Virus record (IMG/VR): IMGVR_UViG_2703718851_000004
Location: 1 to 42,238 of that record
Direction: 5' to 3' (one strand)
DNA: 42,238 nt
DNA from: a virus
Lineage: Duplodnaviria > Heunggongvirae > Uroviricota > Caudoviricetes
Below, in pieces: positions 550-40,820 of this stretch (within the stretch, counting starts at the first letter, position 1; the number at the start of each line of letters is the position of its first letter). A program made the position numbers and the translations under genes. Under the pieces are notes generated by a model that saw only the letters and a list, made by a program, of their open reading frames with translations, searched no databases and was not told the DNA's origin.

Positions 550-912
550 ATGTTAAAACTATTTGCAAAGTACACCTCTATTGGCGTGCTGAACACCCTT
601 ATACACTGGGTGGTTTTTGGTGTATGTATCTATGCCGCGCATACCAATCAGGCTCTGGCAAACTTCGCAGGTTTTGTTGTGGCTGTGAGTTTTAGCTTCT
701 TCGCGAATGCAAAATTCACATTCAAAGCATCAACTACAACGATGCGCTACATGTTATATGTCGGGTTCATGGGAACACTGAGTGCTACTGTTGGATGGGC
801 TGCTGATAGATGTTCACTTCCTCCAATTGTCACTCTTGTCACCTTCTCCGCCATCAGCCTGGTGTGCGGTTTCGTCTATTCAAAGTTCATTGTCTTTAGG
901 GATGCGAAATGA
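550..912 (+). CDS. gtrA: GtrA-family bactoprenol-glucose flippase
   Basis: 120-aa hydrophobic ORF with GtrA-like sequence; first gene of three-gene cassette; stop overlaps gtrB start. Confidence 0.85.
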
Positions 913-1838
913 AGATATCTCTGGTCGTTCCTGTCTTCAATGAAGAAGAAGCGATACCAATTTTTTATAAAACGGTACGTGAATTCGAAGAATTGAAGTC
1001 ATATGAAGTGGAAATTGTTTTCATAAATGACGGCAGCAAAGACGCTACGGAGTCAATTATTAATGCTCTGGCTGTGGCCGATCCGCTTGTCGTTCCTCTT
1101 TCCTTCACCCGTAATTTCGGTAAAGAGCCCGCTCTGTTCGCCGGGCTTGACCACGCAACAGGTGATGCGGTTATCCCGATTGATGTTGACCTGCAGGACC
1201 CGATTGAAGTCATTCCTTATCTCATCGAGAAGTGGCAGGCAGGCGCTGACATGGTCCTGGCTAAGCGTTCTGATCGCTCCACCGACAGCAGACTAAAGCG
1301 CAAATCCGCTGAGTGGTTTTATAAGCTGCATAACAAAATAAGCAATCCGCAGATCGAGGAGAACGTCGGTGACTTCCGCCTGATGTCCCGTGCCGTGGTT
1401 GAGAACATCAAACTGTTGCCGGAGCGCAACCTCTTCATGAAGGGCGTTCTGAGTTGGGTTGGAGGGCGTACTGATGTTGTCGAGTATGCTCGCGCTGGGC
1501 GTGTCGCCGGAGACTCAAAATTCAATGGCTGGAAGCTCTGGAACTTGGCACTTGAGGGCATTACTAGCTTCTCAACCTTCCCTCTTCGCATGTGGACTTA
1601 TATTGGCCTGATGGTCGCCGGCCTGTCGTTTCTTTACGGCGCCTGGATGATTATCGACACGTTGGCTTTCGGTAATGCGGTACGTGGTTATCCTTCACTG
1701 TTAGTATCTATTTTGTTTCTGGGCGGAATCCAGTTAATAGGGATAGGTGTTCTTGGTGAGTACATCGGCAGAATTTACACTGAAGTTAAGCAGCGTCCTA
1801 GGTATATTTTGAAGGGCATTAAAAATGAAAAAAAATAA
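909..1838 (+). CDS. gtrB: GtrB bactoprenol glucosyltransferase (GT2 family)
   Basis: 309 aa; N-terminal GT2 motifs ([22 protein letters not shown]) and C-terminal TM helices. Confidence 0.88.
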
Positions 1839-3279
1839 TACTTATCACATCCCATTTATATTAATAGGGTTGTTTTATTTGCCATTCATCATAAACAATC
1901 AACTTTACGTTGATGATATTTTTAGGGCGCAGAATGGTTTTGATGGGTGGTCTCAAAACGGAAGGCCTTTAGCAGATTTGCTGATGCATCTGCTAATGAT
2001 ATCCTCATCCAAGTTACCTGGTTATGGAATATTTGGACAGGTATTATCAGTAGCAGTAATGTCAATGACAGCAATTTTCTATACTCGTCACATACTTGGT
2101 TCGACAAGCGTGGCAGCGTTAATTTGCGCGTCAGGCTTCGCGCTAAGTCCATTTTATATAGAAAACATGCTCTATCAGTACGATAACCTGCCAATGACGC
2201 TTTCACTTTGTGGTGCGGTTGTTGCTTCTGTCTACGCACTTAAAGAAGACAAAATCTACTTTATTGCATCTTTTATTATCATTGCTTTTAGCGCGGCTTT
2301 ATATCAGACATCAATAAATTCATACATAGCTCTTGTGGCAGTAAACTTAATTGTGAAATTAAAAAAATCTAATGACTGCGCAAAGGAAGTTATTATTTTA
2401 GCTTTAAAAGCAATGGCATCTCTCGCCATTGGCATGATTCTTTATTATTTTATAATAAAGGTTGCTTTCCCGATGACTGGAACAAGAGACCAGGCAATAT
2501 CGTTAGATGCGTCACTTATTGATTACTTTGTAAAAAGAATGGTTAGATTTTATACTTTATTAGAATCAAGTCTATCTATCTATTATGTGGCAATATATTT
2601 ATTGACTTTAGCGTTACTGGTAACAACAACCAAACCAAGAGTTTCGTTTTTAAATATCGCGATAATCATAATCTGTATTTCCGTGGTTGCCATATCACCA
2701 ATAGGAATGCTGGCGATTTTCGGTGAATCAGCCATTGCAGCGAGAATGATGATGGGGGCTGTAGGATTAACAGCTTTAATTTTCACCATGATATCCATAA
2801 GCGAAATTAGTAATAATAAAAAATATTTTGCAATCGCTGTCATCGCAATACCTTTATATGTAATTTCATATGGCTTTTCCTTTGCTATCAAAGAGCAGAG
2901 AATTTATGACAAGTCAATTTTATACCTGTCAATTAATGACATCAGAAATAGCTCAGATTACAATATAAATTCGTACATTGTATATTCTGGCAGGGCGCCA
3001 ATAGCTCCCTTATCGATAAATACTGTAAAAGCATATCCATTAATCTCTACAATGTTGGTTCCAACATATGATTGGACGTCTAGCATGGCTGCCCAGTCAA
3101 TCGACATCCCAAATGTAAAATTCAATTTTGCTAGAGAAGAACAGAAAAAGATAATATCCAATGTATGTGCATCTATAACCAAGCCAATAAAATCCACCAA
3201 TTCTTATTCGATATATTTCAACCAAGAAAACAATGGCTTTTTAATATGGTTAAAAGGAGGAGGCAACACCCCGTGCTGA
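1825..3279 (+). CDS. gtrC: GtrC-type serotype-specific O-antigen glucosyltransferase (polytopic membrane protein)
   Basis: 484-aa multi-TM ORF directly after gtrB, start overlaps gtrB stop; markedly AT-rich relative to flanks. Confidence 0.7.
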
Positions 3280-3312: not shown

Positions 3313-5472
3313 TTACGTCGAGTAGGTAAATGGCGGCTGCTCCTCCAGTGGAACAACTTTTAACCTATTAAGTGAGTAATATGCAGAGTTTCCGGTAAAG
3401 GTGAGAGTCAACACCCCCGTTGTTGAATTAAAGCTTGCAGATGGTGCTGGTATGGTAGATGTTCCAACTAAGCTTCTGCCTTGATATCCAGTAACGCTGC
3501 AAACATTACCCACCAAAACATTAAATCTTAAATCTTGCTGTAATGTTACAGCCACATTTTTCATTAGAAGCCTGCATGAGTATTCTCCCCCTGCCACACA
3601 ATTGCTTACCTGTATATCGAATGTGTTTGCTCCTTGAGCGATTGAAGGTGAACGCATGGTGTACACATCAAGAAGCCCTTTAAATTGGACTGTATAACCT
3701 CTCAACGGCGCTAAAGTATCAGCTATATTTTCTGTAATTGGATGCTCGCAATTTATTTTGATTCCATAACGCCCGAAGCCAAGATCTTTGGTAATCAATT
3801 TAAATGGTGATCCAATCTTCATGTCGTGAACATTGATCTGTGAGATATCAGTCTTGACTACCGCCCCACTTGACAGTGTGTTTCCAGATTGAACAGCAAA
3901 ATCTTTTATATCATGGTTGCAGAAAACACCGAACGTATTAATAGTTGACCCCACGCACTGACACCAAACTCGGTGACCAGTCTCGCTGGCGGCTACATTT
4001 ACACTCTCACTATAACCTCCGAAAACATTAACGTTACCACTATAAAAGAGGGCGAAATCTCGATTGTACCCCTCCCATGTTACTCCGTGCATATTTATGT
4101 CGACACAGTCGTGGGCATAGAGAAAAGTGGTGACATAGGCAATATTTGGTCTATTTGATACATCTCCGGATCTGTGGAACCATTGTGCCGTGCCTTTATC
4201 CCATGTTTGCGATAAATTACCAGTATAATATCCTCCTACCAAGTTTAGTGCCGTAGTGTGGGGTGTTAAAAATGTTGCATATTTAGCGCCTTGTGCAAAG
4301 CAATTCTCTACCGCAGTCCCCCAAGAACCACTTATCCAAAAGCTAACCTTACAGTCATACACTGCAACTCCAATCAGTTTGGCATCCGGAGTCCTCCAGA
4401 TTCTAATTCCCGCCTGCGTATCTGGACGGCCCAATAAAACAATATTCTCTATATATGGTCCATAATATCCAGCACTCAAATACAGCCCATTTTCCACACT
4501 GTTTGTCACTGTATATCTTGCAGTGCCGTCTGATAGCCATGGAGCGGTATCTAGAAGCAATTTATTTACATCCATGGACGTCATAGCAATAATAATTGAG
4601 CATCCTGCGCGTGAATATCTAAAGCCAGACGTTCCTCCCGTGCCAATTACCCTTACATTTGGAGAGAGATAAATAGTGTCATTAATGAAGTATTGAGCAG
4701 TTGGAAAAACAACATCCCCGCCTTGATGTGAGTCATATGAGGCATCAAGGTAAGGGTTTAGATATGAAATCGCAGCATTGATAGCTGGCGCGCAGTCGAA
4801 GGTACTATCGTTAATTTTTGCCCCAAACTCCAACGGACTCACCGTCCTTGCGACATACGCAGAGGATATCTCTCGCTTCCAGCGTCCTGTTCCAGTATTG
4901 CCAGTTGGGTTAATGGTATAGCCTCCGTCATCAGTATCAGTGCTGGTTGAATTCCAGCGGAAATATCCTCCGCCATAACCAGTTCCAAGGTGATAAGAAT
5001 CAACATAGACTCTTCCATTTTCCTTAACTGATGAGTATGCAGTAAATGCTCGTAGATCTGCTATTGATGAGAATGTACCAAATAATGCATAAGAATCAGG
5101 CGCAGACATCTTGGCAAGCCATTCTGCAGAAAACTGATCCGGGTCATACTTCAGCACATTAGGAAAATAGAACTGCTGCACACCGTATGCATCATAAACA
5201 GCCATCGAATGGCCTTGCACAGTTACGAACTTGGCAATCTGTCCGTTATATACCGGGTAACCAGCAGCGTTAATGATGATTGGTTGCGAAACAGGAACGT
5301 GAGATCCGTCTTCATTCTCTACATAAACCTGAATCTGGTTTTCAGTATTTACCGGGTCAGTGTCAATTTTTCCGATATAAATTTTGCCATTGGCTACGGC
5401 TTTAAAAGAACGAGCCATAGTGAAGAGTTGCGAAGGCATCGATACAATCACATTAGCTGTAATATCTGTCAT
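3313..5472 (-). CDS. Tailspike protein; P22-type N-terminal head-binding domain with divergent receptor-binding domain
   Basis: 719 aa; first ~110 residues match P22 gp9 head-binding domain from memory (MTDITANV...[11 protein letters not shown]...LKYDPDQ); last gene of virion module. Confidence 0.88.
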
Positions 5473-5530: not shown

Positions 5531-5553
5531 AAAAAAACCCAGCCGAAGCTGGG
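5531..5553 (-). terminator. Intrinsic terminator (minus strand) upstream of tailspike gene
   Basis: Stem CCCAGC/GCTGGG with loop CGAA, followed on minus strand by TTTTTTT. Confidence 0.6.
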
Positions 5554-5605
5554 TCGTTGCGTTGGTTATCTGTCAGTAGTTATGTACTGGCTGAAGGATT
5601 TGTAC

Positions 5606-5636
5606 AAAAAACCCACCTGAAGGTGGGTTAATTTTT
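5606..5636. terminator. Bidirectional intrinsic terminator
   Basis: Stem CCCACC/GGTGGG with loop TGAA, flanked by A-run on one side and T-run on the other. Confidence 0.6.
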
Positions 5637-5719
5637 GCATTTACCTGGGCCATATTGACTACTTATAAAATGAGATCAATATTTAATCGCCCAATAACGG
5701 GTGTATGTTGAGGTATATC

Positions 5720-5899
5720 ATGGCGAAAAAACCAGGTGAAAACACAGGAAAAAACGGCGGAATATACCAAGAGGTTGGCCCACGCGGCGGTAAGAAAGAC
5801 AATTTTGCCACCGTCAAGGACAACGAAAGGCTTCCGCCAACAACAAAGCCAGGTCATGGCTGGGTATTGGATAAGCGAACTCCAGACAGCAAAAAGTAA
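5720..5899 (+). CDS. Small basic K/G-rich hypothetical protein (59 aa; alternative start 5705)
   Basis: ORF with GAGG RBS 8 nt upstream of ATG 5720; candidate TTGACT -35 at 5655..5660; terminator immediately downstream. Confidence 0.5.
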   Translation: MAKKPGENTGKNGGIYQEVGPRGGKKDNFATVKDNERLPPTTKPGHGWVLDKRTPDSKK

Positions 5900-5905
5900 T
5901 ACTCA

Positions 5906-5927
5906 AGCCGGGTCACTCCGGCTTTTT
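5906..5927 (+). terminator. Intrinsic terminator after small ORF
   Basis: Stem AGCCGG/CCGGCT with loop GTCACT followed by TTTTT; overlaps the stop of the convergent 5913..6278 gene. Confidence 0.55.
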
Positions 5928-6278
5928 GATATGTCGCTCGCAGAACTCAACAAGCCTGCTCATTAAGTAGCAGTAAGTCTCGTTGGCTCTTCCTGGTTCA
6001 ACATCAACACCTACCCTTGAGCAGATATCGAATGCCATGTGAGCACACTCATGGGCAATAGTAGATAGTTTGCCATTGAACACGCCTATCACATGCAAAA
6101 CACCATTCTCGCTGCTCATTGTATGAGACGCTCCGTTGGCATCCGAGTCCTGCACGTCCACACCAAGTTTTTGATGCAGGCGTTGCCATTCTGGAAAGTC
6201 TCTACAAAACACAATTGTACCGCTCTCAAAGAGCGGAACGAGCATCTTTGGTACGTTTCCAATGTTAACTTTTTTCAT
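5913..6278 (-). CDS. Hypothetical 121-aa protein with HExxH zinc-metallopeptidase motif (mini-zincin-like)
   Basis: ORF with AGGA RBS; motif [11 protein letters not shown] (H76-E77-x-x-H80) with glutamates 14-20 residues downstream. Confidence 0.55.
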
Positions 6279-6308
6279 GGTATCCTGCGTAAAACTAAGG
6301 AGGTTGGT

Positions 6309-6803
6309 GTGTCTGATTCTATGAGTTACGCTGTGCTAGTTGCCGCAACTCTATTTCTGGGGATAGGGTTGCAGATTGCGTGGTTCTTTTTTTCTAGTTT
6401 TATTAAACGTAAAAGAATTGAATCAAGGATATCTGAGATTTCTATTGCTATAGGGAAAAATGCTGAAAATCCAGAGAATGAGGCCTGCGCACTGAATTAC
6501 CTTAAAGAAAAGTTTTCCCCTGAAAAATTTGAAAACAGAATTACTGATGCTCTTGGATTGGTAATATCAGTAATTCATATGCCACTAAGTTTACTGATAA
6601 CAGTGTGGTACTTCGCCATGATCGCCGGAAGAATATTTGGTTTCATGAATATAGATCCTGTAGTTCTTTGGGTTCCAATGATACTGCAATTGTTGTTAAG
6701 CGTTGCTATCTTTATTTTTTCTGTTTTTATAAAAATTGTCTTTGGAAGATACCCCGGAGAAGCGAAGGGATTTAATAAAGAATTCATAAAAACTATAAAA
6801 TAA
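6309..6803 (+). CDS. Hypothetical AT-rich integral membrane protein (about 4 TM segments); start GTG 6309 or ATG 6321
   Basis: AAGGAGG RBS at 6296..6302; four long hydrophobic stretches; AT-rich; divergent from the HExxH gene. The 6093 upstream extension of the ORF is judged non-coding. Confidence 0.6.
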
Positions 6804-6825
6804 ATGCCGTCCCTGGCTTACAGTG

Positions 6826-8700
6826 CTACTGCCGGGTAGCTTCGTTAACTAAGAGCGGGCGCACGGCAGTAGCCGCCTGATTTAGCGCTCTTTCATAGGC
6901 TGGTGTTCCTGCTTTGGTGTTTGCCAAGCGTAAGAGAGCATTCCTTGCTGCTTTGGATTCATACAAGCGCATCATTGCACCGAAACCAGCCTCAAGCCCC
7001 ATTGATACGCCAAGAGTCGCAGTTGCGCCAATCGTCCTTATCCTGTTGGCTTGCGATTGCCCCGTCTGAGTTACTACATTTGCGGTGTCTGACCTTGCTG
7101 TTTGCTGTAGAACTTCATGAAGAGCATCAAGTTCTTTCATGTGCTTTCCAGAAAAAATAGTGTTGTAAATTTCACCGCCTGACTGAGATTTCAGCTTATT
7201 AACTTCAGTGATGAACTTGGCTGGAGAGTCACCTGCCTTTTCCGCTATTTTGCTGACGTAAGCTGCACGCATAGCATCTTTCCCTTTATCATCCAATGCG
7301 CTCCAGATTCGTTTCACGTCAGATGGTTTTCTACTTAATACAACGGTATTTATAAGTTCAGGACTGGCTTCACTGCTTGCCTTGTTGAGCTTGTTAGCAA
7401 TGTTTTTATTAAGCACCTTATTATAAACGTTTGCATAATCGGAATTTGCTTTAAGGTATTTTGCTGCGTCTGATGCACCTAGGTTTTTAGCAACTGCGTT
7501 ACGAAGGTCTTTTGACATTGCATTCTCTACCATATTGGTAGCTGCTTTTGCCTGGTTGGGGAAGACCATAGCATCTCCCTGAACATTAGATCTAAATGCT
7601 GTTCTGTGCTGGCGCAAGAGATCAAACGTAACATCCAAATCAGTTGCAGGGTTTGCTAATTCTTCACGTAGGTTACGCAAGGATGTAAGCAGGCTTTGAT
7701 TGGCAGACGTCCCAAGCCGTTCCTGTCTTGCGATCGCTGTATTCAGAGCATTCATGGTATTTGTGGTATCAACTGCGGCATTACCCATTTTATTGGTGAC
7801 GTCATTGATAACAGCGCCAGCGGCATCCTTCCGCCCCCTTAACGTGGTGGTCAGAGATTTCACCACATCATCAGGGTTGTACTCACCAAAACGGTCAAAA
7901 TAATTGCTTACCAGCTTACTACGCGTTGCATATTGCTCCGCTCTCTTTGAGCCTGTCCCGAGCAAAGCCCCCTCGGCATCCTGAGTAAGGCCGCGAGTGA
8001 AAGCATTTTTCGGCGGGATAACATCAGATGTCATTGGTGTCACGCCCATCGATTCTGATGTGGCAATTTTCTTCGCCACTTCTGGCGCAATATCACCTTT
8101 TATAGCCGTTATTCCACGCCCTATTCCCTTTGCTGCTGCGGAAAGAACCCCCTGAGCGGCAAGGTTAACTCCGGCATTTTTAGCTGCATTTTGTGCGAAA
8201 TCGCCTTTCTGATTTGCGGCCTCTGCCAGTGATCCAATAGCCATGCTTCCTGCCGTTCCAACTCCTGGAACTAAATACCCACCAATTGTTTCACCGGCTT
8301 GCGCGTAGGGGTCTGTCGGTCTGTCTACTGGACGATAAACATCATCCAAAACCTTGGGTCCACCAAGCCCCTGACTGATTGCATTAATCAGACTTGCGCC
8401 ACCCTGCAATACGTCAAATGGTATGTTTACCAGACCACGACCAGCCTGTTCTGCAATTTGCCCTGCACTTTGACCACCAGTGAGCCAATCGCCAGCTTGT
8501 TGCATCAATGATGGTTCTTCTTTCTGCTGCTGAGTCGGAGGGTATGCTGCATAAAACTGATCTCTTGCTTCAGCCCATTTGTCACCAGCCTTAGGGGCAA
8601 CAACCTCATCAAAATATTGCGCTTGAGCCTGTGCTTTCTGTTCTTCAGTTAACGCCTGATACTGTGGAGAGGCGATAACATCTTTCCATGCTTTAGCCAT
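6826..8700 (-). CDS. Ejection (injection) protein, P22 gp16-like
   Basis: 624 aa; last of three ejection-protein genes in P22-type order (7, 20, 16). Confidence 0.75.
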
Positions 8701-10088
8701 TAATCACCCCATAGTGAAGAAAAGTTACTGCTGGCTGCTGGCTGTGATACCTGTGCAGGTTGAGATTGCTGCCGCTGAGATTTACCAACATTAACGTTAT
8801 ATTGTTGGTTGTAATTGTTGGTGTATTCCTGAATCTCACGAATCGACTGCTGCATAGCCTCCGGGCTTGAATAGTCAACCTGCGGCATCCCCTGAAAATA
8901 CATCTTCGCTTCTGCAACGGTGTTAATACCACTGGCACCCATGTCCCTTGCTGCCGCCACACCCTGATTCTGCATTCTGCCCTGAATACGTTGTGCTGAG
9001 TTATATAACTGGCGCTGCTCTTTTCCTGTTAATCGGCTGCGAACATCAGCACCAATTGCTGGATTACCTGCACCGCCTGTCATTCCTGTCATGAAATCGA
9101 GAGCAGAAGCGTCTGCATTTGCGATCGCGTCGATATCCTTCTTCATGGCATAGTTTTGTGCTGATGCAGACGATGTTGCAGGCGCTGCGATTGAACTGGC
9201 AGGAACGCGAACCATATTCCCCTCGTTGTCGATGCCTTCGTAGAACGCATTAGCCCCAGCGCCGTGAAGCTTCCCGCCTACCGTTACAGTTCTGCCATCT
9301 GATAACTGAACTGTACGCTCATCATTCCCAGCGATTCGTCTTGTTGACGCTCGCTGCATTGCCAAATCCTGACCTCGTCGCGCAGTAGAAGCAGATAAGT
9401 CCTGACCGCGCATCGTGATGTTCTGACCTCGTGATGTTAGTGCCTCTCCTGCCTGATTGCTGCGGATTGTCTCTGCCAGTCTGCCTCGGTCAATCTCACG
9501 ACCAGCCATCTTGTCCTGAACATTGAAGTAATCAATCGGACCAAGAGCAGCCATTCCAAGGTGATCAACAAACTCACCAAATCCTGAAGGGTTCTGCTGA
9601 TACATCTGAGCAACGCTGTTAGGGTCAACACCGACGCGAGTCAGTTCCTTGGCGTTGTTTTGCAGCCATGATTGCATTGCTTCTGGAGACGATGACGCAA
9701 GGCGTGCACCAGCCGCTAAGGTGCCGATAGAATTACGCTGGTCTTCATCAATGAATCCCATGCCTTTACGAACGGATTCAATCTGGTCTGGATATTGAGT
9801 AGCCAACTGACGCAAAGCACCGCGATCACCAGACGCATAAGCATTAGCGTACGCCTGCTGAAATTCTTTCTGCCGCTGAGCCTGCTTTTCCTGCTGAAAC
9901 ACCCCCGCAATACCTGAAAGGCCTTGCAAAGCAGTCAGCCCAACATTGTTAGCGCCTGAACGCTCAATATCATTGTTCTGCCTGATAAGCTGAAGCGTAT
10001 TGCCGATGTCATTTACGCTCGGAGCGTTTGAGTTGACGCCGCCGATACCAGCCAACAATCCGCCGTTTGTTCCTTGCCAAGTAGCCAT
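8700..10088 (-). CDS. Ejection protein, P22 gp20-like
   Basis: 462 aa; synteny between gp7-like and gp16-like genes. Confidence 0.75.
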
Positions 10089-20568: not shown

Positions 20569-20949
20569 CTACTGTTCGCTTAGCTTCTGCTTCAGCAAGT
20601 AACCTTCGAGCATCCAGATTTTGTTTACAGCATTCTGCCGGGCAATCTTCCGACCAATTTCTGCATCAAAGTTTTCCGGGCTTGCACAGGCACTCTCTCC
20701 GGTGACGGTGAAGCCATTCTTCAGCACCAGTACGCAGAAAGTGAGCAACTTCAATGGTGATAAATCACGATCGCCTTCTTCTGGTTTTTCCCTGCCACAA
20801 TATTCGTTGCTGGAAATGGCACCATTTCGTCCATCATAAGCAGTAAAGTAATGCTCGCTTTTAATCACGTCTTCGATGTGCTGCGGGGTGATTCGCGGTG
20901 CCGTTTTGCCTTTCTCAACGATTTCTTTTTCGATTTGCTGGTCGTTCAT
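20569..20949 (-). CDS. Conserved phage protein of unknown function (possibly Gp49/Sf6-gp66-type family)
   Basis: 126-aa ORF between lysis cassette and terminase genes; family assignment from memory only. Confidence 0.5.
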   Translation of the reverse strand: MNDQQIEKEIVEKGKTAPRITPQHIEDVIKSEHYFTAYDGRNGAISSNEYCGREKPEEGDRDLSPLKLLTFCVLVLKNGFTVTGESACASPENFDAEIGRKIARQNAVNKIWMLEGYLLKQKLSEQ

Positions 20950-31575: not shown

Positions 31576-31649
31576 AATACGATATGTACTTTTAGAATGC
31601 AAACAAAAAATACATCTTGTGCATGGATGGTTTTAGTACAGAGCGTAAT
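31576..31649. promoter_or_regulatory. OR region with divergent pR/pRM and candidate operator sites
   Basis: Two 15-bp sites with dyad AGTAC-N5-GTACT character: AATACGATATGTACT (31576..31590) and AGTACAGAGCGTAAT (31635..31649). Confidence 0.5.
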
Positions 31650-31658
31650 AATAAGGGT

Positions 31659-32318
31659 ATGAAAATGAAATGGTATGAACTGGCTAGATCCAGAATGAAA
31701 GAGCTCGGCATAACTCAAGAGAAGTTAGCTGAAGAGCTTGGTATGACGCAGGGTGGAATTGGTCACTGGTTGCGCGGATCTCGTCATCCATCTCTTGACG
31801 AGATTGGTGTGGTGTTTAAATACCTTGGTATTGATAACGTCTCATTCAACCACGACGGTACATTTTCACCTGTTGGCGAATACTCATCTGCCCCCGTTAA
31901 AAAACAATATGAGTACCCTGTTTTTTCTCATGTTCAGGCCGGGATGTTCTCGCCTGAGCTTAGAACCTTTACCAAAGGTGATGCGGAGAGATGGGTCAGC
32001 ACAACCAAAAAAGCCAGTGATTGTGCGTTCTGGCTTGAAGTTGAAGGTAATTCCATGACCGCGCCAACAGGATCCAAGCCAAGCTTTCCTGACGGGATGT
32101 TAATTCTCGTTGACCCTGAGCAGGCTGTTGAGCCAGGTGATTTCTGCATAGCCAGACTTGGTGGTGACGAGTTTACCTTCAAGAAACTGATCAGGGATAG
32201 CGGTCAGGTGTTCCTACAGCCACTAAACCCGCAATATCCAATGATCCCATGCAATGATAGCTGTTCCGTTGTAGGGAAAGTTATCGCCAGCCAGTGGCCT
32301 GAAGAGACATTTAGTTAA
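31659..32318 (+). CDS. cI: CI prophage repressor; LexA-like S24 C-terminal domain, non-lambda N-terminal HTH domain
   Basis: C-terminal ~130 aa nearly identical to lambda CI from memory; N-terminal DNA-binding domain differs; start 31659 or 31665. Confidence 0.9.
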
Positions 32319-33536: not shown

Positions 33537-33633
33537 AATGTCGCTCGTAACTAAACAGGAGCCGACTTGTTCTGATTATTGGAAATCTTCTTTGCCCTCC
33601 AGTGTGAGGGCAATTTTTTTTGATGGAGGATAT

Positions 33634-34602
33634 ATGAGTGAAGTAACAGATTTAGTTGTTATTGAAAAAGCAAATGCAATGACTGTATTTCAGTCTGCCG
33701 ACCAGATTGAAGAAATTCTCCAAAAGGTTGAACGTGAAGTTATGTCCTTTGTGCCTGATATCACAACGGCAAAGGGCAGAAAGGAGATCGCTTCTCTGGC
33801 GTATAAAGTTGCGCAGACGAAAACATATCTCGATGGTCTTGGCAAAGACCTTGTTGCTGAACTGAAGGAAATTCCAAAGCTAATTGATGCCAACCGCAAG
33901 ACAGTGCGCGATCGCCTTGATGAACTGAAAGCCAAGGCGCGCCAGCCTCTTACTGATTATGAGGAGGAACAGGCACGGATTAAAGCCGAAGAAGAAGCTA
34001 AGGCAGCAGCTGAAGCTCTCGCAAAGCAAATTGAGTCTGACCATGAAATAGCGATTTTGATGGATCGCGAATTTGACCGCAAAAGAGAAGAGGCAAGACT
34101 CAAAGTGGAGCAGGAAAAGCGAGAGCATGAAGAACGCTTAAAAAGAGAAGCTGAAGAGAAAGCCAGAGCAGAAGCCGAAGCAAAGGCAAAAGCCGAAATT
34201 GAAGCAGCAGCAAGGCGAGAAGCAGAAGCTAAGGCAGCAGCGGAACGTGCAGAGCGTGAACGCATTGAAGCCGAGCAACGAGCACAGCGCGAAGCAAAAG
34301 AGGCAGCAGAACGAGCTGAAAGAGAAAAGCAGGCGGCAATTGAAGCAGAACGCCGAAAAGCACAGGAGGAGGCTGAACGAATCCGGCGCGAGGCTGAAGC
34401 AAAAGAGCAAGCCAGAATAGCAGAAGAAAAAAGAATCAAGGAAGAAGAAGAGCGTAGAGCAAAGGATAAAGCTCACCGGAAAGAAGTAAATAACAAAATA
34501 CTTGCTGACCTTATCAAGGTTGGTGCATCAGAAGATGTTGCTAAAAATATCATAACAGCCATCGTAAAAGGCGAAGTATTCGCAACAAAAATAACCTACT
34601 AA
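33634..34602 (+). CDS. Hypothetical protein with long A/E/K/R-rich coiled-coil segment
   Basis: GGAGGA RBS before ATG 33634; central ~170 aa of repetitive EAKA/ERAE-type sequence. Confidence 0.7.
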   Translation: MSEVTDLVVIEKANAMTVFQSADQIEEILQKVEREVMSFVPDITTAKGRKEIASLAYKVAQTKTYLDGLGKDLVAELKEIPKLIDANRKTVRDRLDELKAKARQPLTDYEEEQARIKAEEEAKAAAEALAKQIESDHEIAILMDREFDRKREEARLKVEQEKREHEERLKREAEEKARAEAEAKAKAEIEAAARREAEAKAAAERAERERIEAEQRAQREAKEAAERAEREKQAAIEAERRKAQEEAERIRREAEAKEQARIAEEKRIKEEEERRAKDKAHRKEVNNKILADLIKVGASEDVAKNIITAIVKGEVFATKITY

Positions 34603-39553: not shown

Positions 39554-39772
39554 ATGTACTTGACACTTCAGGAGTGGAACGCTCGCCAGCGACGTCCAAG
39601 AAGCCTTGAAACAGTTCGTCGATGGGTACGCGAATGCAGGATATTCCCTCCTCCGGTTAAGGATGGAAGAGAGTATCTGTTCCACGAATCAGCGGTAAAG
39701 GTTGACTTAAATCGACCAGTAACAGGTAGCCTTTTGAAGAGGATCAGAAATGGGAAGAAGGCGAAGTCATGA
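39554..39772 (+). CDS. xis: Excisionase Xis
   Basis: 72 aa MYLTLQEWNARQRRPRSLETVRRWVRECRIFPPPVKDGREYLFHESAV..., matches lambda Xis from memory; overlaps int start. Confidence 0.95.
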   Translation: MYLTLQEWNARQRRPRSLETVRRWVRECRIFPPPVKDGREYLFHESAVKVDLNRPVTGSLLKRIRNGKKAKS

Positions 39773-40820
39773 GCGCCGGGATTTACCCCCTAACCTTTAT
39801 ATAAGAAACAATGGATATTACTGCTACAGGGACCCAAGGACTGGTAAAGAGTTCGGATTAGGCAGAGACAGGAGGATAGCAATTACTGAAGCAATACAGG
39901 CAAACATTGAGTTATTTTCAGGACACAAACACAAGCCTCTGACAGCGAGAATCAACAGTGATAATTCTGTTACGTTACATTCATGGCTTGATCGCTACGA
40001 AAAAATCCTCGCCAGCAGAGGAATCAAGCAGAAGACACTCATAAATTACATGAGCAAAATTAAAGCAATAAGGAGGTGCCTGCCTGATGCTCCACTTGAA
40101 GACATCACCACAAAAGAAATTGCGGCAATGCTCAATGGATACATAGACGAGGGCAAGGCGGCGTCAGCCAAGTTAATCAGATCAACACTGAGCGATGCAT
40201 TCCGAGAGGCAATAGCTGAAGGCCATATAACAACAAACCCGGTCGCTGCCACTCGCGCAGCAAAATCAGAGGTAAGGAGATCAAGACTTACAGCTGACGA
40301 ATACCTGAAAATTTATCAAGCAGCAGAATCATCACCATGTTGGCTCAGACTTGCAATGGAACTGGCTGTTGTTACCGGGCAGCGAGTTGGTGATTTATGC
40401 GAAATGAAGTGGTCTGATATCGTAGATGGATATCTTTATGTCGAGCAAAGCAAAACAGGCGTAAAAATTGCCATCCCTACAACATTGCATGTTGATGCTC
40501 TCGGGATATCAATGAAGGAAACACTTGATAAATGCAAAGAGATTCTTGGCGGAGAAACCATAATTGCATCTACTCGTCGTGAACCGCTTTCATCCGGCAC
40601 AGTATCAAGGTATTTTATGCGCGCACGAAAAGCATCAGGTCTTTCCTTCGAAGGGGATCCGCCAACCTTTCACGAGTTGCGCAGTTTGTCTGCAAGACTC
40701 TATGAGAAGCAGATAAGCGATAAGTTTGCTCAACATCTTCTCGGGCATAAGTCGGACACCATGGCATCACAGTATCGTGATGACAGAGGCAGGGAGTGGG
40801 ACAAAATTGAAATCAAATAA
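39750..40820 (+). CDS. int: Tyrosine integrase Int
   Basis: 356 aa, near-identical to lambda Int from memory (MGRRRSHERRDLPPNLYIRNNGYYCYRDPRTGKEF...). Confidence 0.97.
   Translation: MGRRRSHERRDLPPNLYIRNNGYYCYRDPRTGKEFGLGRDRRIAITEAIQANIELFSGHKHKPLTARINSDNSVTLHSWLDRYEKILASRGIKQKTLINYMSKIKAIRRCLPDAPLEDITTKEIAAMLNGYIDEGKAASAKLIRSTLSDAFREAIAEGHITTNPVAATRAAKSEVRRSRLTADEYLKIYQAAESSPCWLRLAMELAVVTGQRVGDLCEMKWSDIVDGYLYVEQSKTGVKIAIPTTLHVDALGISMKETLDKCKEILGGETIIASTRREPLSSGTVSRYFMRARKASGLSFEGDPPTFHELRSLSARLYEKQISDKFAQHLLGHKSDTMASQYRDDRGREWDKIEIK

Follow-up and report, generated by a model that had tools for sequence, protein, structure and literature searches.

P22-like phages carry, between gene 16 and gene 9, an "ant moron" or immI region in which hkcC has been listed as a gene of unknown function (PMC2629481; PMC4837284), the region as a whole being a known hot spot for the accumulation of unrelated morons (PMC2629481). 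Here we consider the copy of hkcC in a 42,238-nucleotide stretch of viral DNA (positions 1 to 42,238 of IMG/VR record IMGVR_UViG_2703718851_000004, the whole of which we call the window), which represents a complete P22-like (Lederbergvirus; HK620/Sf6-type) prophage of E. coli. The gene name, and small zincins on mobile elements as a kind of protein, were already known. New, as judged against the libraries and papers available to us, are a large, uncurated and phage-restricted family of gluzincin-like proteins of ~120 amino acids (aa), its invariant residues, and a recurrent hkcC/orf59a cassette at immI-type modules. With moderate confidence, we take hkcC to be an accessory (moron-type) gene for a soluble, stand-alone minimal gluzincin-type zinc metallopeptidase.

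The window compares very closely with HK620 and P22 at this locus. All three share the gene order gene 16, sieA or hkcB, hkcC, orf59a and tailspike gene, together with a shared terminator, and the HkcC protein of the window is 100% identical to that of HK620 (NP_112089.1) and to the product of the equivalent P22 open reading frame (ORF; NC_002371.2 13861-14226, between sieA and orf59a). What separates them is that P22 alone has mnt, arc and ant, which the window phage, like HK620, lacks. Window positions 5590-6830, spanning orf59a, an interval that is unannotated in the P22 records examined, and sieA, are 96.9% identical to P22 DNA. The P22 RefSeq record NC_002371.2 and several other P22 records have no coding sequence at hkcC, the RefSeq marking just a "sieA promoter" and an "mnt terminator". 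Several newer records give the ORF as a hypothetical protein, and one Salmonella phage record as a GNAT family acetyltransferase, a label that nothing in our analysis backs (the records concerned are NC_002371.2 and KR296688.1).

The HkcC family and its predicted zincin core

The elements of hkcC on which the assignment depends are as follows.

5913-6278, minus strand: hkcC coding sequence, 121 aa plus TGA stop, with an ATG start; putative minimal gluzincin metallopeptidase (from the ORF list, identity to HK620 HkcC, PHROG 1365 and purifying selection)
6039-6053, minus strand: HExxH codons H76-E77-C78-A79-H80, giving two predicted zinc ligands and the catalytic base; invariant in alignments A1-A3
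5967-5984, minus strand: NExxCY codons N99-E100-T101-Y102-C103-Y104, with E100 the predicted third zinc ligand and Y104 conserved (conservation from the family alignment; N99-E100 pairs with thermolysin N165-E166 in sequence comparisons)
6132-6134, minus strand: G49 codon, at the start of a beta-hairpin ahead of the HExxH helix; predicted substrate-binding edge strand

The original prediction, which was made from the letters of the window, had proposed a 121-aa protein with a complete HExxH motif in a phage accessory slot. Both points are borne out, since the minus-strand ORF at 5913-6278 encodes HECAH at H76-H80 and lies between gene 16 and the tailspike gene, in the ant moron/immI region of P22-like phages. 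Translated in all six frames, the 42-kb window contains HExxH at four places, and in the printed context only the hkcC copy precedes an uninterrupted reading frame. It had also been claimed that glutamates follow 14-20 residues past the motif. E94 and E100 do stand 14 and 20 residues after H80, of which only E100 is conserved. Conservation of the motif among homologues had been set beforehand as a check, and HExxH is present in 170 of the 177 relatives retrieved; the seven without it comprise six truncated, frameshifted or chimeric fragments and P0134, which has HKAAH in its place.

HkcC has a single full-length match among the profile libraries, to PHROG 1365 (unknown function; E = 1.4e-39, residues 1-121 on profile positions 3-120 of 127). 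When a family profile built from 18 homologues was searched against 1.84 billion representative proteins, it returned 547 cluster representatives at E <= 0.001, of which 151 reached E <= 1e-10; their lengths are mostly 105-140 aa. Residue conservation was counted over 123 diverse members chosen for having HExxH: G49 is kept in 123/123, E100 in 122/123, Y104 in 118/123, G90 in 112/123, L105 in 111/123 and N99 in 92/123, with E94 kept in just 32/123. These counts give a family signature of G49, a beta-hairpin, (T)LxHExxH, 19 residues of any kind, and NE-x-(F/Y)-C-Y-L. A second, word-indexed homologue search with a broad profile added no distant annotated relatives, and the longer relatives showed no informative domain fusions. 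Six distant members (P0063, P0067, P0116, P0133, P0150 and P0170) have Lys/Glu/Ala-rich low-complexity C-terminal tails of 50-70 residues, and P0094 (283 aa) has a 165-residue N-terminal extension without a Pfam match.

The spacing of the predicted ligands is that of thermolysin, with 20 residues from H80 to E100 as there are from H146 to E166. In phmmer comparisons the HECAH... segment of HkcC was aligned with HELTH...GAINEAISDIFGTLVEF of thermolysin/neutral protease at E = 0.1-0.7, an alignment that covers both motifs. Of the twelve matches below E = 10 obtained by comparing the broad family profile with all PDB sequences, eleven are zincin peptidases, none being individually significant; among them are myroilysin (0.06), the BMP1/TLL1 astacins (0.11), peptidyl-Lys metalloendopeptidase and thermolysin. 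These alignments extend beyond the motif, to the two strands that precede it or to the Glu helix that follows, and the hairpin and helix of HkcC were aligned with the strand-strand-HExxH region of astacins and myroilysin. Weak matches that agree with these were also seen in structure comparison, to 3e11 (a 114-aa "zincin-like metalloprotease"), CBASS CapP, IrrE/PprI, PrpR (twice; it has an M78-like domain), oligopeptidase A and two collagenases.

An AlphaFold2 model, computed from an 18-sequence alignment, has a predicted local distance difference test (pLDDT) value of 89.1 and a predicted template modelling (pTM) score of 0.83. It contains strands at 11-13 and 21-25, a helix at 28-37, strands at 49-56 and 59-66, a helix at 71-88 that carries HExxH, and a helix at 100-116 that starts at E100, so that the elements of the model come in the order to be expected of a zincin core with a glutamate helix behind it. 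Foldseek gave no significant match for this model in the PDB. Among the predicted viral structures of BFVD there were 26 matches at E <= 1e-3, with TM-scores of up to 0.83, all to phage proteins of ~105-215 aa that are nearly all "uncharacterized"; three are labelled "SprT-like" or "Metalloprotease", and an "IrrE protein" appears lower down. Taken at the level of the superfamily, the placement of HkcC as a gluzincin-type zincin is thus well supported by motif conservation and predicted architecture. What the analysis shows is the ORF itself, the conserved motif, purifying selection, the predicted order of secondary structure, the strand and the genomic surroundings; zinc binding, catalysis, the timing of expression and the target of the protein are inferred.

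If the zincin scaffold is accepted, it might still serve something other than proteolysis, and HkcC could be a zinc-binding protein, for instance an adaptor or an inhibitor of small size. In its favour, solved peptidases are matched only marginally, our literature searches found no activity data, and P0134 has HKAAH where its relatives have HExxH. We nevertheless regard this as improbable: the catalytic Glu of HExxH is kept in the 170 of 177 relatives counted above, and N99, E100 and Y104 show the conservation known from active gluzincins. Metal binding does not require the catalytic Glu, so that the retention of this residue speaks for chemistry.

Several considerations weigh against reading HkcC as a peptidase. 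The protein has no meaningful match in Pfam, NCBIfam or PADLOC (lantibiotic matches at E = 0.03-0.14 were set aside as noise), and comparison of its family with bona fide SprT orthologues by hhalign gave a probability of 10.5% (E = 0.003). Convergence of H76, H80 and E100 on one site is predicted at the level of sequence and secondary structure. The placement of relatives beside terminase genes or in moron slots, described below, carries little functional information, and our literature searches (hkcC, phage anti-defence metalloproteases and P22 transcriptomics) found no functional, expression, metal-binding or activity data on hkcC.

Comparison with named peptidase families suggests that HkcC belongs to none of those considered, and membership in M4, SprT-like or ImmA/IrrE families is not supported. 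Thermolysin (M4; PDB 1kei, 1npc) shares the HExxH motif, the NE pair on the next helix and the 20 residues from second His to Glu, but is ~316 aa long against the 121 of HkcC, which has no C-terminal domain. Four residues past the Glu, where HkcC has Y104, thermolysin has D170. M4 membership was rejected on a local match of ~47-68 residues only, with E = 0.1-1.3. The SprT-like proteins (PF10263; E. coli SprT, eukaryotic SPRTN) are likewise zincins of small size, in which a strand containing Gly and a further strand come before the HExxH helix, and PF10263 is the only Pfam family matched repeatedly by the relatives (32/127, best E = 1e-4). Those matches are below cut-off and take in profile positions 63-96 of 108 only, the motif helix; for HkcC itself there was no PF10263 match. 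In SprT the third ligand is a His soon after the motif, HELAHLL...PHGKEW being invariant in A4, the alignment of SprT orthologues, whereas HkcC has Glu at +20 and no His between H80 and E100; bacterial SprT also has a C-terminal Zn-ribbon (PF17283) that HkcC lacks. The orthologues were gathered with an E. coli SprT query, which retrieved genuine PF10263 proteins. Given the hhalign probability, we have not filed HkcC under SprT.

With regard to ImmA/IrrE (Peptidase_M78, PF06114/COG2856), HkcC gave no match even at E <= 10, and PF06114 was not among the families matched by the 127 relatives. The original prediction had offered a gluzincin or an ImmA/IrrE-like core; the minimal gluzincin type stands, on motif, E100 spacing and predicted architecture, and membership of ImmA/IrrE does not. 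HkcC is much smaller than proteins of that family, CBASS CapP included, and has no ImmA-type partner, which would be a neighbouring co-transcribed helix-turn-helix (HTH) repressor that the protease cleaves; its neighbours are the divergent sieA and the convergent orf59a. Its relatives also occur in N4-like (Schitoviridae) phages. The His-to-Glu spacing of IrrE, ~27, also differs from the 20 of HkcC. Proteins of comparable size exist elsewhere. Acel_2062 (PDB 3e11), a 114-aa "predicted zincin-like metalloprotease", is a stand-alone minimal zincin, and the minigluzincins proabylysin and projannalysin are soluble zincins of ~100 aa that are structurally related to the catalytic domains of M48 and M56.

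Coding evidence, the shared hairpin and expression

The features that surround hkcC, and that bear on whether and how it is expressed, are listed here.

6283-6286, minus strand: AGGA, Shine-Dalgarno-like, 4 nt upstream of the hkcC ATG (read from the sequence; the minus strand is ...GCAGGATACCATG)
5905-5924, no strand assigned: hairpin common to the convergent hkcC and orf59a; a good intrinsic terminator of orf59a on the plus strand, with the hkcC stop in its loop
5720-5899, plus strand: orf59a, 59 aa, convergent partner of hkcC, weakly YjzC-like (PHROG 3202, E = 7e-31; Pfam YjzC, E = 0.0013, below cut-off)
6309-6803, plus strand: sieA (superinfection exclusion), 164 aa, divergent from hkcC (PHROG 7745, E = 1.7e-108; P22 annotation)
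6826-8700, minus strand: gene for an ejection (DNA transfer) protein of the gene 16 type, directly upstream of hkcC in the late operon
3313-5472, minus strand: tailspike gene, which comes next after hkcC in the late operon

Judged by the way its sequence has evolved, hkcC is a genuine gene under purifying selection. Between the window, P22 and HK620 there are two nucleotide differences in 366, both synonymous; in the same comparison the neighbouring sieA has 22 differences in 495 nt, of which 13 are non-synonymous. In the diverged homologues of Klebsiella, Xenorhabdus, Proteus and Pasteurellaceae, the proportion of non-synonymous differences (pN) is 0.28-0.46 and that of synonymous differences (pS) is 0.67-0.95, synonymous sites being saturated. 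The orf59a-hkcC stretch is matched in 172 of 5426 complete E. coli genomes, and HkcC relatives were found in 285 IMG/VR contigs, where just near-identical copies are present among the 80 loci kept, a set that adds prevalence and no diversity. Plasmid matches to HkcC are few and mostly in records of roughly phage-genome size, the protein being almost absent from true plasmids.

The absence of hkcC from the P22 RefSeq annotation implies a quite different view, in which the ORF is not expressed and is a chance frame antisense to the sieA promoter region; NC_002371.2 and several other P22 records do have only a promoter and a terminator at this site. We consider this extremely improbable, and the conservation data already effectively refute it. 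The protein is wholly unchanged between P22, HK620 and the window, where the DNA differs at synonymous positions only; non-synonymous divergence is limited in homologues whose synonymous sites are saturated; the 547 family representatives are spread over many phage types; the predicted fold is confident; and HK620 and many newer records annotate the coding sequence.

The hairpin between hkcC and orf59a has the sequence AAGCCGG-GTCACT-CCGGCTT, followed on the plus strand by TTTTGAT, and folding gives it -12 kcal/mol with z = -2.6. A further claim of the original prediction, that the stop codon lies inside the loop of the terminator hairpin of the convergent ORF, holds, the TGA of hkcC being the complement of 5913-5915 in the loop of 5905-5924. 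This arrangement is kept in the Xenorhabdus homologue, where the hairpin is identical, and in the Klebsiella homologue, where it is different. The annotation of HK620 names the shared hairpin "bidirectional terminator tORF59A". On the minus strand no T-run follows it, and it should be a poor terminator in the hkcC direction, which makes read-through of the late operon towards the tailspike gene plausible.

At the other end of the gene, the start codons of hkcC and sieA are 30 nt apart and divergent. The promoter of sieA must be contained in the 5' part of hkcC, and PsieA is placed within the first ~55 bp of hkcC on the opposite strand (PMC10883804). A mechanically called sieA ORF at 6093-6803 would encode 236 aa and overlap most of hkcC on the other strand, and at least one published annotation, that of UAB_Phi20, uses this 236-aa version; the 164-aa sieA, from the GTG at 6309 behind AAGGAGG, gives a full-length match to P22 SieA and PHROG 7745.

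For hkcC itself, no consensus promoter was found on the minus strand, nor any minus-strand terminator between gene 16 and hkcC. Taken with its position on the late strand, this makes antiterminated late read-through the most likely route to expression. In P22 the late promoter also serves gene 9, which is reached by transcription reading through immI. The antiterminated late transcript of P22-like phages, extending from gene 16 as far as gene 9, would thus include hkcC, and HkcC would be made in the cytoplasm during lytic growth.

Genomic contexts and the orf59a partner

In every context examined hkcC lies on the strand of the late/structural operon, and its relatives divide into groups with different surroundings. 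In subfamily A (>= 46% identity to HkcC) a convergent orf59a homologue is usually found 14-30 bp downstream, with orf59a identities of 64-80% in the diverged loci and 98% in P22 and HK620. The hkcC/orf59a pair recurs in six independent settings, namely P22, HK620/window, and Klebsiella, Xenorhabdus, Proteus and Pasteurellaceae prophages. In a siphovirus-type prophage of Klebsiella oxytoca it precedes the tape-measure gene and follows a Phage_YdaY gene and two small ORFs; in a Xenorhabdus hominickii prophage it lies between a tail assembly chaperone gene and a KilA-N gene that precedes a tape-measure-sized ORF; in a Proteus penneri prophage it comes after a DUF6246 gene, downstream of head and tail genes; and in a Pasteurellaceae prophage it comes after the replication genes O and P. 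Upstream of orf59a, on the same strand, three of these loci have a ribbon-helix-helix (RHH) gene, which is mnt in P22, matches Pfam Arc (8e-15) in Proteus and matches RHH_1 weakly in Pasteurellaceae; Bro-N or KilA-N antirepressor-like genes then follow in Proteus and Xenorhabdus. Given these RHH and antirepressor neighbours, the cassette (hkcC rightward, orf59a and an mnt-like gene leftward) is a recurring left arm of immI-type modules.

The ORF59a protein is Gly/Pro/Lys-rich, and prophages of four other genera have its gene in the distal position of an mnt-like operon. It has no relative in the PDB, and more distant YjzC-like relatives occur alone in Firmicutes phages (Brochothrix, Streptococcus and Clostridium). 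The homologous genes, each given by its position in the locus analysed, are these.

6384-6563 of locus L011: orf59a homologue
6380-6580 of locus L013: orf59a homologue
6351-6527 of locus L014: orf59a homologue
6378-6563 of locus L015: orf59a homologue

These neighbourhoods raise the question of whether HkcC acts within the module that contains it, as an ImmA/IrrE-style regulatory protease that cleaves a Mnt/Arc-type RHH repressor or the ORF59a protein translated from the convergent mnt-orf59a transcript, and so couples late lytic transcription to the inactivation of prophage-state functions. The repeated convergent pairing with orf59a in subfamily A would fit this, as would the RHH genes of P22, Proteus and Pasteurellaceae and the Bro-N/KilA-N genes of Proteus and Xenorhabdus. 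However, the window and HK620 have kept an identical hkcC after losing mnt, arc and ant, one E. coli prophage has hkcC without orf59a, and subfamily B and the distant relatives, N4-like ones included, have neither partner. The lack of a PF06114 match and of an adjacent co-transcribed HTH repressor also speaks against it, as does the place of the gene in a hot spot for unrelated morons (PMC2629481). We therefore think such a regulatory role unlikely, if somewhat less so than the non-proteolytic and DNA-associated roles considered here.

The E. coli prophage in question, from an enterotoxigenic strain (NZ_LR883012.1; L104 2499-3888), combines hkcC with a full mnt-arc-ant set. The position of orf59a is taken by a 105-aa gene (PHROG 19844), and an extra 61-aa gene (PHROG 7586) lies downstream of hkcC. 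Because of this prophage, strict coupling between hkcC and orf59a was rejected.

Subfamily B (~38-42% identity) includes ST64T orf-129, epsilon34 gp70 and phage L orf129, together with genes of Kluyvera, Citrobacter, Mixta and Atlantibacter prophages. Where flanks are identifiable these genes come after the lysis genes and/or ahead of terS, with no orf59a, and the more distant mEp021 relative occupies the same slot. A subfamily B paralogue was sought in the Rz-terS slot of the window and none was found. The window slot between lysis genes and terS is filled by a gene at 20569-20949 (minus strand) for a 126-aa Phage_gp49_66 protein (N4 gp49/Sf6 gene 66 family). Among distant members, one lies upstream of terS/terL in a metagenomic P22-like phage and another directly after terL in a different phage, while the relatives from N4-like Klebsiella and Pseudomonas phages belong to a block of small genes transcribed divergently from the terminase genes.

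Such positions might be taken to indicate a SprT/Spartan-like, DNA-associated protease that clears proteins stuck on phage DNA (covalent adducts, or nucleoid and replication proteins) before or during packaging. Relatives do often stand beside terminase genes, as in the slot upstream of terS in ST64T-type phages, mEp021 and the metagenomic P22-like phage, the position after terL and the N4-like block; several longer relatives have Lys-rich C-terminal tails; and the PF10263 matches of 32 of the 127 relatives, like the SprT-like labels of some BFVD neighbours, are in the same direction. We give this role little credence. The PF10263 matches are limited to the HExxH helix and fall below cut-off, the hhalign comparison was poor, the third ligand of HkcC is predicted to be Glu at +20 rather than a nearby His, HkcC has neither Zn-ribbon nor basic tail, and terminase-proximal slots are also generic moron slots.

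The remaining features of the window that were identified are the following.

550-3279, plus strand: gtrABC
6826-10088, minus strand: ejection-protein genes 16 and 20, with head, portal and terminase genes beyond
31617-32318: S24-type repressor (self-cleaving type)
39750-40820: integrase

The gtrA-gtrB-gtrC O-antigen glucosylation operon, which adjoins the tailspike gene, is the usual lysogenic-conversion module of P22-like prophages. The 240 bp that separate the tailspike gene from orf59a contain two orphan strong hairpin terminators, at 5536-5555 and 5610-5629, and in the equivalent interval of HK620 terminators are annotated as remnants of the deleted ant and mnt. Together these indicate that the window phage appears to have lost the immI core, keeping orf59a, hkcC and sieA. 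In the early-left region, downstream of an N-like antiterminator gene, a 354-aa ORF at 33538-34602 (plus strand) is matched only by PHROGs of unknown function (1376 and 21365) and by nothing in Pfam or PADLOC, and may represent an early accessory gene that is as yet uncharacterised. In the Klebsiella oxytoca locus, ~3.5 kb beyond hkcC-orf59a and past the tape-measure gene, L011 10241-11854 encodes a 537-aa SNIPE/T5orf172/MUG113-domain protein and is followed by two Arc-family genes (L011 11895-12369), which looks like another moron cluster within the tail operon.

Proposed mechanism, target and meaning

Returning to our preferred reading of HkcC as a minimal gluzincin-type metallopeptidase, a mechanism may be sketched from the conserved residues. 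H76 and H80 of the HExxH helix and E100 of the next helix would hold one zinc ion, E77 would act as the general base that activates the zinc-bound water, and Y104 and N99 may help to stabilise the transition state or to orient the site. A substrate could dock with its chain as an extra strand on the beta-hairpin that starts at G49. With 121 residues and no other domain, HkcC most likely cuts one protein or a small number of them at specific places, in contrast to bulk degradation.

As to what is cut, our ranking is a guess, which puts a host protein (of defence or takeover) first, the immI/orf59a module second and a SprT-like DNA-linked role third. A host target is placed first because the family reaches N4-like (Schitoviridae) phages, because hkcC outlasts the loss of mnt, arc and ant in the window and HK620, and because the repressor of the window phage is of the self-cleaving S24 type, all of which also argue against a target specific to lysogeny. 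The original prediction had named repressor cleavage and toxin or anti-defence action as what small zincins of mobile elements often do; a regulatory target keeps some probability, as the close subfamily recurs beside Arc/Mnt-Ant modules. A broader proposal can be put forward tentatively, and we hold it to be doubtful: that HkcC and its ~550 relatives are unrecognised phage-specific minimal zinc endopeptidases, each making a specific cut in a protein of host defence or housekeeping or, where HkcC is paired with ORF59a, in a component of the Mnt/Arc-Ant (immI) circuit.

P22 and HK620 are textbook phages, and yet the P22 reference annotation omits hkcC, which elsewhere is given as of "unknown function". 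Assignment to a zinc-peptidase family turns it into a concrete hypothesis that can be tested cheaply. A defined host or regulatory target, if there is one, would lead to a protease-based mechanism in phage-host or lysis-lysogeny control, and otherwise the gain would be one of routine annotation. Should the broader proposal be true, then the family would represent a new protease-based arm of counter-defence or regulation that has gone unnoticed in the classic model phage P22.

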